Shown piece by piece: positions 10,766-16,030 of a stretch of DNA of 55,653 nucleotides. Source of the DNA: a virus (Duplodnaviria; Caudoviricetes); the IMG/VR virus record IMGVR_UViG_3300011114_000465, positions 1 to 55,653 of that record; one strand, 5' to 3'. The notes under the pieces were generated by a model. That model ran no database searches. It saw nothing but the letters and a program-made list of their open reading frames with translations, and was not told where the DNA came from. The stretch's first letter is position 1; each line of letters opens with the position of its first letter. Both the position numbers and the translations under genes were made by a program.

Positions 10766-13700
10766 ATGGCCCTTGATTTTTCCAAGTACGGCACGCCGGT
10801 TGAAGACCAAGACGAGCAACCCGATTTTTCAAAATTCGGCACGCTGGTAGAAGACGCTCGCCGTGAGCTGTCGCCAGGGTCAAAACCATCTACCGCTGGT
10901 GCAGGTCGTGGGAGCGTCAACCCGCCAAGTGTTGAGGCCCGCGATGACCGTGGAATCATTCAACGCGTTGGCGATTTTTTGAGGCCAGAATACAAAAGCG
11001 TTTTAGAAGGCGTTAAACCTACACCTCAAGAAACGCAAGCTGAGCTTGATCGTCGGCTATCTTATGGCGCAGGCCCCATTAGCCGTGAAACCGTAGCTAA
11101 GGCTGACTTTTCGCGTAGCGGTATGCTGGTCACTGATGACAAGACTGTCAACAAAGTGGCTGCCGCCATGCAGCAAAAAGGTCAGCCAAGTTTTGCTGAT
11201 TTTATTGAACGCGCAAATGACCCATCAGTTGTTCGGGCTGCCCGCGAAGCAAAGGCCGACGAGTTTAGAACTGCGGGTGAGTGGGCTGTCGATACGTTGT
11301 CTGGCTTGGCTCAGGGCGGGACTAGCCTGGTCCAGTTGCCCACCAACATCATTGCCCCTGGAAGCGTTCTTGCTCAATCTTTACGGGATACCCAAAAAGA
11401 ATTGCAAGCCCAAGAATCGAGCGTGCTTAAAGCGCAACGAGACCGTTTGCGCGAGCGTGTGGAAAATGAAGAAGGCTTTCTTGGAAAATACTTTGCCACG
11501 GTTGAAAGCCTTGTAACAAACCCCGCACTCAGCTTATCCGAAGCCACCAAACAAGTACCCAACTTTTTGGGTGTGATGGGGTTGGCCAAAGTGGGTGGAG
11601 TCCTGGCAGGCGAAACCGTAGGCTTGGCCACACGCGCCAGCCCAACGATTGCCCTTAGCGAAGCCATCAGCGGTAACGCCCTTCAAACCAGTGCTCGCAT
11701 GGCGGGTACAACCGCTGGCGGTTTGACGGCTACCACAATCATGACCAGTGGTGACGCTGCTGGGAATGTGTATGAAACACTCATTGATCCAAAGAAAACG
11801 CCGCGAAGCCTTTGGGAACAAAACCCGGACTACCAAAAACTCATTGCCGCAGGTAAAAGCCCCGCGCAAGCAATTGACGAAATAGCTACGGCCAAGGCTC
11901 GCCTAGCCGCTTTGATTGTTGCGCCTTTAGGTGTTTTTGGCTTTATGGGTGCTGAAGCAACAATTGCTTCTAGGGGCGCAGGAAAGATTTTGTCAGAAGT
12001 GGCAACGCCCAAAGGCGCGGCTAAGGTGTTTGGCAAAGAACTACTTGGCGAACAGGTCGAAGAAGGCGGCACACAGTTTGGCGGAAACGTCATCACTCAA
12101 ACGGTCAACCCCCAACAGAAATTGATGGAGGGTGTGCCCGAAGCAATGGCGACAGCTGCCGTTACATCGGCCCCATATTCAGCCGTTGCCGTTGGCCAAC
12201 AAGTTCGTGATGAATTAAATCGCCCGGCCCCTGTTGTTGATCAACAGGTTGACGCATTAGTTCGCCGGGCAATGGATGTTCAGTCATACGACGCAAACAT
12301 CATCAGCCCCACACAGACCGCGCGTATCAACCGCGCACAGACTGTCCTGAACCAGGCAACCAACGTCGACGACATGACCGGCGCGGCCAATGAGCTGGCC
12401 GGTAATCTCAACGAGATGTTGGTGCCAAACAACGCGGTCACACCGCTGCCGCCGGTTCTCAACGAGCCAGCTCCTACCAATGAACCCCTGCCTCCAGGCC
12501 CAGCACTGACCAATGAACCTCTGGCCCTGACCCCCGGTCCAGAGGTCAATGCGGAAACAGAACAACAGTTTGGCCTGGACAAGTTGCGCATGAACGCGCC
12601 ACGCCCGCAAAGCATCCAGGGTAAACCCGTTGCCAGCTTGACAGACGATGAGCTGTCAGCGACCATTGCCGACTCGAACGTCTCAGCCATCACCCGCAGA
12701 AGCGCAGAGGTTGAGCTGAAGGCCCGCCAATCGGAACAAACGCCAAATGCACCAGCAGCCACTACAACAGCCACCACGGCCATCCCGGATGTCACGGGTA
12801 CCCTTGGGTCAACCCCAGTGCGGGGTGGCGCTGCTGCACCGGTTAGCGAGCTCCCTGGAGCCGATACAGCAAGAGCGAATGCTCAACGATCTATTGATCG
12901 ATGGGCAACCTCCCAGGGCGTGGCTTCTCCGATCCAGTTCAACCCAGCACCCCCAGAAGAAACATCAGCCGTAAGCCAAATTGGCCAGGCGCTGAACAGC
13001 CAGTTCGGCACGCGCCTGTTTGCGTATCACGACACAAACGTGGCTTCGCCCAACGGTGTGGCCATTGCCGGCTCGGGATTTGTCAATACCGCCAACGTCG
13101 CAATCAATGTTGGCCGCACGTCGCTACATGAGTTCAAACACACAATTGAGCAGATCGCAAAGGTTGAGACCGATGCTGGATTAACCAACACCCCGGCCCA
13201 GCAATTCACTGCCCAACTCGATAGCATCTTTGACGACATGACCGATGAGGGCAAACGCGCCTACATCGAGAACTTCTTGCACCGAGATGACCTGGCTGGA
13301 ATCACGGACCCGGCTGCACGCGAAGCACGCATTCAGCAATACATGACCGCGCCGTTGACCCGGTCAGAGATGACTGCCGATTTCCTGGGCAACCGCGCGA
13401 CTGATAAAAAGTTTTGGGCCGATGTGGCCAAGGCTGACCCTCAAGGCTTCAAAGGCTTTGTCGACAAGTGGTTGAAGATCATCGACGGCCTGCTTGAGCG
13501 TTTGCGTGGCACATCAAAGCAAGGCAAATATGAATCCGCCCGGGTCGACAAATACGTTCGAGATTTGAACCGTGCAAAGATGACTGCCCGCGATGCGCTG
13601 GTTGCATACCGCAAGGGTACACTCCAGCAATTTGAAGGAGCCACCAATGGACCAGCCAACAATGCCGTTGCCGGAAGTCAAAACGTACCAGGAGTTGCAA

Positions 13701-16030: not shown

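Follow-up and report, generated by a model that had tools for sequence, protein, structure and literature searches.

A selected +1-frame gene nested in a giant phage polyvalent-type protein gene, and its predicted pairing with the adjacent ADP-ribosyltransferase-fold domain

The virus record IMGVR_UViG_3300011114_000465 of IMG/VR (Caudoviricetes), analyzed here over its positions 1 to 55,653 and referred to throughout as the window, encodes at the end of its late/structural block a multidomain polyvalent-type protein of 1754 residues (aa) in a single long open reading frame (ORF) at 10766..16030. Within this host gene, and in the +1 frame relative to it, lies the nested gene ORF1, which has 58 codons plus TAA (13647..13823; ATG at 13647, TAA at 13821-13823) and is preceded by the Shine-Dalgarno (SD) sequence AAGGAG (13635..13640), 6 nucleotides (nt) 5' of the start codon. 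The host frame then encodes a domain predicted to have an ADP-ribosyltransferase (ART) fold (host aa 996-1135; 13751..14170). All features given here for the host gene are on the plus strand. A preliminary description of the locus, made from the sequence alone, had proposed these start signals, and the AAGGAG, the 6-nt spacer, the ATG and the 58-aa ORF were all found where it placed them; the host residues GTLQQFEGATNG do indeed encode the hexamer TACACT (13618..13623), the AAGGAG and the ATG, as it had stated. The combination AAGGAG-N5-8-ATG is enriched in the window (8 copies observed vs 1.32 expected, with none of 100 shuffles reaching 8), and each of the remaining seven copies stands at the ATG of an ORF of at least 59 aa at a gene boundary.

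ORF1 begins in a variable, indel-rich linker of the host protein (13631..13750), situated between a helical region and the ART-like domain. In an alignment of 20 homologues of the host protein this linker has indels and low conservation, and the host-frame ratio of nonsynonymous to synonymous polymorphism (pN/pS) reaches 1.0-1.46 in 30-codon windows over it, vs a gene-wide median of 0.40. Two parts of ORF1 can be distinguished. The putative functional core, codons 9-33 (13671..13745), is a predicted amphipathic helix delimited by nested-frame selection and by predicted contacts with the ART-like domain; the tail, codons 34-58 (13746..13823), has a sequence set by the host frame, as judged from periodicity, pN/pS and parsimony. 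The ORF1 peptide has a heptad-like pattern (V11, Y14, Q18, L21, L25, L28), and its invariant residues are Q15, Q18, D22, L25 and G29. A model of a 266-aa stretch spanning the linker, built from 12 close sequences, was poor (predicted local distance difference test score, pLDDT, 42.2) and uninformative on linker disorder.

Related loci, designated by L-numbers, were taken from IMG/VR (29 loci) and from metagenomes (27 loci), and the host frame is open too in those that we examined. Some contigs are present in both sets, and we therefore counted by distinct sequences. The SD, the ATG and the ORF are kept in all 20 viral loci that span the region with full coverage, in the form AAGG[AG]G-N6-ATG in the +1 frame followed by an ORF of 54-58 codons, while the spacer sequence varies. 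A profile search with the peptide identified ORF1 in 45 of 57 sources. Three of these matches were removed, two because they were cut by the contig end and one (L051) because it covered the host-constrained tail alone, leaving ORF1 in 42 loci including the window, or 34 distinct sequences of 52-64 codons, and all 34 have an ATG start with a purine-rich SD 5-8 nt upstream. An ORF1-type ORF was also present in both genome matches, which are contigs of metagenome-assembled genomes labelled uncultured Burkholderiales and uncultured Klebsiella. Among the 12 sources with no ORF1 match, three (L020, L023, L050) do not reach the region, and the others (L022, L024-L029, L055, L056) are distant or have another architecture.

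Four measures were used to determine which frame is constrained over ORF1. Firstly, pN/pS from pooled Nei-Gojobori counts in 12 non-redundant sequences was 0.46 in the nested frame vs 1.58 in the host frame over the first 36 nested codons, and 1.02 vs 0.40 over the last 21. Secondly, when 255 sliding 30-codon windows were placed across the whole host gene, the +1 ratio fell below the host ratio at 13589-13784 and 15686-15863 only. Thirdly, the position entropy in 34 sequences was 0.79/0.39/0.96 for nested positions 1/2/3 over codons 10-33, a nested-frame periodicity, and 0.28/0.95/0.59 over codons 34-56, a host-frame periodicity, with the switch of phase at about codon 33. Fourthly, in a parsimony count on a tree built from an independent region, the 330 nt downstream, the core had 109 events that changed the host residue but left the nested one unchanged vs 34 of the opposite kind, and tail codons 34-56 had 34 vs 94 (core vs tail, Fisher p = 1.1e-16, for events that are not fully independent of each other). 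The concordance of the four measures leads us to regard ORF1 as a selected protein-coding gene. ORF1 thus has what is expected of an overprinted gene, namely an alternative frame that is open in homologues, conserved start signals of its own and purifying selection in the alternative frame, and on these comparative grounds we are highly confident that it is real. We take the conservation of the ORF, SD and ATG and the selection on the nested frame as established.

A directly opposed reading is that there is no nested protein, and that the SD-like element and the ATG aid pausing or stimulate frameshifting in the host frame, or are a by-product of host constraint. Internal SD-like sequences do stimulate programmed frameshifts, as in dnaX and prfB, and an open +1 frame is common in the host gene. 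Against this, the ATG and SD are strictly kept while the host residues vary, and coding periodicity together with the low nested pN/pS occurs precisely where the host ratio is high. Moreover, a +1-frame stop lies directly 5' of the ATG in many loci, so that the nested frame can be entered by initiation only and not by a frameshift from upstream, which rules out a programmed frameshift in place of initiation. We consider a non-coding signal very improbable and nearly excluded.

Directly after the ORF1 stop there is a further +1 ORF (13824/13836-14057, plus strand) with GGAG-N6-ATG at 13836. We rejected it as a gene, since over it pN/pS is about 1.0-1.6 in the +1 frame and 0.1-0.3 in the host frame.

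The region after the linker (13760-14170) was modelled by AlphaFold from a 23-sequence alignment with a pLDDT of 85.7 and a predicted template modelling score of 0.82. The preliminary description had called the region ART-like by eye, and this held at the level of the fold (by the model, Foldseek and VIA-align) and did not at that of sequence profiles. Foldseek against the PDB gave MbcT as the best match (E 1.2e-2), followed by diphtheria toxin, ParT, AcrIF11 and NatT. VIA-align against 48,161 chains gave Z scores of 6.6 for MbcT, 6.5 for NatT, 6.3 for ParT, 6.0 for VPA0770, 5.9 for RES, 5.8 for diphtheria toxin and 5.7 for AcrIF11, with nearly all of its top 50 being ART-fold entries (best 6fkg_B, Z 6.6, root-mean-square deviation 4.2, 122 residues aligned). 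These Z scores are moderate, and it is the consistency of the list of matches that supports, at the level of the fold, the predicted assignment. In BFVD the top matches were homologues named [quoted passage not shown], and after them came ART-PolyVal proteins, the latter at probabilities of 0.97-1.00.

Matches to host residues 999-1135 (E<=1e-3) were found in 813 representative proteins, most of them 1,000-5,000 aa long, and those that were checked also carry ART-PolyVal, InPase, NUDIX, LPD22/37/38, MuF_C and DUF7178 domains. Within the same proteins there were no overlapping pairs between this domain and ART-PolyVal segments. In 151 copies of the domain the near-invariant residues are H12, S14, E34, R37, R49, Y53, E63, H71, Y79 and E96. 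H12 (150/151 copies) is at the end of strand 1 (residues 5-14) and Y53 (151/151) is in strand 2 (residues 50-55), so that the domain has, in addition to the fold, the histidine and the tyrosine in the places expected of an ART. These two residues fit the H-Y-[D/E] pattern described for polyvalent ARTs (Iyer et al. 2017, PMC5512222). A Pfam search with 13760-14170 gave no ART-PolyVal (PF18760) match even at E<=10, hhalign of the domain against 41 ART-PolyVal segments gave a probability of 2.3%, and the acid of strand 5 is not evident, with Q115 (74%) before strand 115-120, D105 (83%) before strand 106-112, the invariant E96 in a helix and E63 in a loop. A PDB sequence profile search with the domain likewise gave no matches. 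The modelled ART fold we take as established, and we class the domain, on the strength of the model, as ART-fold and not as PF18760.

The ART-like domain is modular, as it occurs at varied positions and behind varied upstream domains across polyvalent proteins, examples being L024 (host aa 875-949 and 1770-1884) and a 3125-aa hypothetical protein of Limnohabitans phage DC33 (L069; PQ492659.1), whose record is filed under Inoviridae, yet the protein is of the caudovirus polyvalent kind. The domain model has a weak structural match (Z 4.3) to PDB 9k3a_B, a chain of the cyanophage A4 pre-ejectosome (PMC12002296), which would fit with the giant proteins being ejection proteins. The main text of that paper contains no word starting with "ribosyl", and so mentions no ART domain there.

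We then considered whether the ORF1 peptide and the domain encoded after it could be partners. Complexes were predicted from the domain alignment and the peptide alignment in three runs, with three controls. The interaction prediction score from aligned errors (ipSAE) was 0.72, 0.63 and 0.68 (median 0.68) for the domain with the peptide vs 0.00 in all three controls; the mark used is reached by 58/80 solved complexes and 2/110 mismatched pairs, and is approximate here since our own alignments were used. The runs had at least 80% of contacts in common, with a partner pLDDT of at least 57. On the peptide side the predicted interface consists of residues 9-11, 13-22, 24-26 and 28-33, the same stretch (9-33) that selection independently defined. 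On the domain side it consists of residues 13-15, 25-31, 33-34, 37, 51, 63-67, 81-92, 95, 109-112, 117 and 119, a set that takes in the conserved polar face and of which Y13, S14, G27, G29, E34, R37 and E63-G67 are near-invariant in the 151 copies and Y51 is conserved in 75%. From these models we consider it probable, with somewhat better than an even chance, that the ORF1 peptide binds the ART-like domain.

The association of nested ORFs with the domain was examined in the best 80 of 205 loci confirmed in an IMG/VR scan with the domain alignment, plus DC33; this set consists of relatives of the window's domain, does not sample the family as a whole, and shares contigs with our first set. Upstream DNA was sufficient in 65 distinct loci, and 52 of these have an SD-led +1 ORF of at least 30 codons that starts 150-45 nt before the domain. 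For the +2 frame the count was 0/65, and nine other 105-nt control windows had a +1 ORF of this kind in 3-25 of 60-65 loci; the value of 25/65 in one control arose because conserved host residues dictate the GGAG and ATG of the 13836 ORF. In nine of the 13 exceptions such an ORF begins at a greater distance upstream. The peptides encoded upstream of the domain are of the ORF1 type (including versions with a GTG start, preceded by AGAAGGAGAAG, in L104-L106), that of L112, the DC33 type and the L109 type. The DC33 type (24 loci, 13 distinct sequences) follows a different upstream host domain, has its +1 ORF at -98, and has a pN/pS of 0.31 in the nested frame vs 0.66 in the host frame. The phage of the window is uncultured; DC33, a relative in culture, has a nested ORF of the DC33 type. 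The co-occurrence of an SD-led +1 ORF with the domain in these loci is established.

The other region flagged by the scan of frames across the host gene contains a second nested gene, ORF2, of 62 codons plus TAG in the +1 frame (15696..15884; ATG at 15696, TAG at 15882-15884), with the SD-like sequence AAAGAGGG (15683..15690) upstream of its ATG. It occupies the linker that leads into the host protein's C-terminal module, and is present in 31 loci, or 21 distinct sequences, with nested-frame periodicity over codons 1-32 and with AAAGAAGG or AAAGAGGG before the ATG in nearly all of the 21.

A third conserved type of +1 ORF (MGK.TYKG.VP.DDPMF.TGPE.FSRL...), with an SD-like GGGAGG or GGAAGG, was seen in two positions: in L001 in the last ~420 nt of the host ORF (ending at 6336), in place of ORF2, and at about -320 to -20 nt before the ART-like domain in L109, L110, L113-L115, L119 and L135.

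Our best explanation of the locus is as follows. Ribosomes would initiate at the strong SD and ATG of ORF1 on the late mRNA of the polyvalent-protein gene and read in the +1 frame across a linker that the host protein can spare. About 25 residues of the product (9-33) would be its functional part, an amphipathic helix that would lie over the conserved face of the next host-frame domain, the one with the ART fold. The peptide may thereby act as an antitoxin- or immunity-like safety catch that keeps a NAD-using domain silent, or competent for packaging, in the producer cell, with the domain restrained until the giant protein has been packaged and then injected into the next host. Taken as a whole, i.e., a nested gene, binding and a safety-catch role, we would give this explanation an even chance of being correct. 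An antitoxin-like role for ORF1 is plausible, and that the peptide inhibits the ART-like domain is a possibility whose chances we put just short of even. The timing and release that the safety catch calls for, and the enzymatic activity and toxicity of the domain, would belong to the same model.

It is feasible that the ORF1 product is real and binds the domain as a folding or packaging chaperone, a trans-acting subunit or an activator, and not as an inhibitor. Such a role would draw on the same evidence for the gene and the same support for binding as the safety catch does; the domain is part of a giant virion-type protein that needs to be assembled into the capsid, and a strong SD on the same mRNA would place a helper where its client is made. 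That ORF2 precedes a C-terminal module that does not look enzymatic would also suit a general role in assembly. On the other hand, the predicted contacts take in Y13, S14, E34, R37 and E63, the polar positions best conserved in the domain, a pattern that in the models looks more like occlusion of an active site than like chaperoning. We consider a chaperone, subunit or activator unlikely.

Several of our results weigh against the safety-catch explanation, and some of these favor a further alternative, in which ORF1 is real but its product has another target, for instance a host defence or a regulatory process, with its position reflecting a linker that tolerates overprinting and the predicted complex being a false positive. 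Disordered and variable regions are favored sites of overprinting, and indels and sequence variation mark this linker. ORF2 lies in another linker and adjoins no ART-like domain, from which it follows that the nested genes of this locus need not be inhibitors. The peptide types of different clades have no demonstrable homology (hhalign gave a probability of 1% for the ORF1 and DC33 types), so the association may in part reflect a linker that tolerates overprinting. Binding is predicted by one model-based test, in which memory of solved toxin-antitoxin (TA) complexes could aid the placement; two of the mismatched pairs mentioned above did reach the ipSAE mark, and clade-specific substitutions were not enriched at the interface (18/34 vs 44/84). 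It is not obvious, either, why a lytic producer cell would require an antitoxin. In addition, ORF1 is absent in L022 and L024, four of the 65 loci have no SD-led +1 ORF before the domain, the domain has no assigned catalytic acid and no profile match to ART-PolyVal, and the ORF1 peptide had no match in Pfam, PHROG, NCBIfam or PADLOC and none to an antitoxin family. Set against a product that acts elsewhere are the separation of the ipSAE values from those of all three controls, the coincidence of the interface with the selected stretch of the peptide, and the excess of +1 ORFs before the domain over the control windows, which is seen even where the upstream domain is different. We regard this alternative as distinctly unlikely.

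A broader form of the safety-catch explanation would be that polyvalent effector genes carry hidden +1-frame ORFs in their linkers, each encoding the cognate inhibitor or chaperone of the adjacent domain, with ORF1 as the first example and ORF2 as the second. The DC33-type and L109-type peptides would then fill the same place in other clades, and an immunity gene nested in the ORF of its toxin would be missed by gene callers. We offer this generalization tentatively, and consider it rather unlikely.

Other searches with the ORF1 peptide returned little. The Atlas search gave no usable match, a search for peptides of near length found only three near-identical proteins among 5.8 billion clusters, and a search within longer proteins found none among 8000 scored candidates, which is weak evidence.

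The preliminary description had likened the order of ORF1 and the domain to the antitoxin-before-toxin order of type II TA loci. This stands to the extent that an SD-led +1 ORF precedes the ART-fold domain in most related loci and that the ORF1 peptide is predicted to bind the domain; it does not in that the "toxin" is one domain of a 1754-aa protein and the peptide belongs to no antitoxin family. Among the type II TA systems with ART-fold toxins (MbcT-MbcA, ParT-ParS, NatT-NatR and RES-Xre), the toxins are the best solved structural matches of the domain, and here too a small protein, predicted to bind conserved residues, is encoded just upstream of an ART domain. In the solved complexes of ART-fold TA systems the antitoxins block the NAD site. 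The arrangement differs in that the "toxin" of this locus is one domain of a phage effector, whose gene contains the "antitoxin" as an out-of-frame ORF, whereas type II systems consist of separate adjacent genes with a stand-alone toxin (the domain is residues 996-1135 of the enclosing ORF). The ORF1 peptide is only 58 aa long, lacks a helix-turn-helix (a DNA-binding domain) and a DUF2384 region, and resembles no antitoxin in sequence; direct binding of antitoxin to toxin, a property of type II systems, is supported here in silico (ipSAE 0.68 vs 0.00). The pair of ORF1 and domain may therefore be at most TA- or immunity-like in its working, and is a member of no type II TA family.

Three other known arrangements share features with ORF1. 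In the gene pair Rz/Rz1 of phage lambda, a larger late gene encloses the whole of a small +1-frame gene that starts on its own, and the two products interact, Rz1 being a lipoprotein with a signal sequence that acts in lysis. ORF1 differs from Rz1 in having no signal peptide or cysteine and in being located in the linker of an effector, and the Rz-like spanin of the window is encoded elsewhere (5643-6110). The comS gene of Bacillus subtilis, a peptide gene of ~46-58 codons (a size range shared with ORF1), lies out of frame in srfAB, a giant gene for a modular protein; ComS is a regulator of competence and is not known to target the product of srfAB, and comS is bacterial whereas ORF1 is of a phage. 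Viral overprinting typically creates a short new protein in a frame inside an older gene, at a variable region of the older protein (PMC8227390 and PMC3494269, as far as the available portions of these papers go). ORF1 is likewise short and lies over a variable host linker; overprinted genes have been catalogued mostly in small RNA and single-stranded DNA viruses, whereas ORF1 is in the polyvalent effector gene of a 55-kb double-stranded DNA phage and its product is a predicted binder of the adjacent domain.

The domain itself is most readily compared with ART-PolyVal (PF18760; Tox-ART-HYD2 clade; PMC5512222), which is likewise an ART fold of giant phage polyvalent proteins with the histidine in strand 1 and the tyrosine in strand 2, and the two are found together in the same proteins. 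It differs from ART-PolyVal in having no profile match and in its own conserved set of E34, R37, R49, E63, H71 and E96.

Each of the three ingredients (overprinted genes, polyvalent proteins and TA toxins of the ART fold) has precedents; it is their combination in one locus that would be new. Our literature searches turned up no account of polyvalent proteins with nested genes or immunity-like partners, and the domain may already be listed as an LPD (large polyvalent protein associated domain) in the supplement of Iyer et al. 2017. Neither "immunity protein" nor "overlapping" occurs in the main text of the founding paper on polyvalent proteins (PMC5512222), and the available part of PMC9503650 likewise describes no nested or immunity-like partner of these proteins. 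The presumed function of polyvalent proteins is to disarm the next host, into which they would be injected from the virion that packaged them; what protects the producer cell and the assembling virion from their enzymatic domains has so far not been addressed. A nested, co-transcribed binder, if true, would be a direct and testable answer to how the producer cell is spared, and would provide a minimal natural ligand, of ~25 residues, for a widespread uncharacterised ART-fold domain (the 813 representative proteins). More generally, selected genes within giant phage ORFs escape gene callers, as is seen from the mere three near-identical proteins among the 5.8 billion clusters, and the comparative signal at ORF1 is clean enough that scans of other polyvalent proteins could be modelled on it.

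With respect to transcription, the preliminary description had proposed the TACACT hexamer (13618..13623, plus strand) as a promoter of ORF1, and this claim did not survive: the hexamer has 4 copies in the window vs 12.2 expected, and so is not above chance. We reject a promoter at TACACT because of this copy number, the lack of any sigma-70-like promoter site in 13300-14000, and poor conservation, as the hexamer is retained in the three closest loci only (L001-L003). It is simplest to suppose that the ORF1 peptide is translated from the late mRNA of the host gene.

The window was judged to hold a complete podovirus-like set of genes, including terminase (43577-45058), portal (45794-48016), major head protein (49680-50741) and endolysin (6107-6571), in addition to the spanin, tail and tail-fiber genes, and a replication block on the minus strand. 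Two giant genes, the host gene and one of 2002 aa at 16535-22543, close the late block, and the host gene lies after the tail-fiber and lysis genes and beside the gene for an ART-PolyVal protein. A search with the host protein gave no matches in Pfam, PHROG, NCBIfam or PADLOC, and megablast of the host gene against phages gave none; by tblastn two records were identified, Limnohabitans phage DC33 and phage zth2-2. The host protein nevertheless has the features of polyvalent proteins as given by Iyer et al. 2017, being large, multidomain, late/virion-encoded and possessed of shared domains, and its middle domain is found in giant proteins with ART-PolyVal, InPase, LPD22/37/38, MuF_C and DUF7178.

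The neighboring 2002-aa protein (16535-22543, plus strand) has a true Pfam ART-PolyVal domain (PF18760) at aa 996-1187, together with weak RelA_SpoT-like and phage L5 gp82-like matches. A codon-phase scan of its gene in 6 sequences, which covered fully occupied columns only and so left the indel linkers outside the scan, flagged no window.

Two further observations concern the host gene. Its ATG follows the stop codon of the upstream gene by 2 nt (TAATCATG, window 10761-10768), with no SD-like sequence before it, and it is feasible that the host protein is produced through translational coupling, at a rate below that of the SD-led nested peptide. At host aa 788-792 there is an HExxH motif (HEFKH with a downstream E; window 13127-13141, plus strand), in a region with no Pfam match, and the motif is kept in 12/12 aligned homologues as HEFKH, HELKH, HESFH, HEGFH or HEFHH. 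By its motif this region looks like a zincin metallopeptidase, similar to the MPTase of polyvalent proteins (Iyer et al.).

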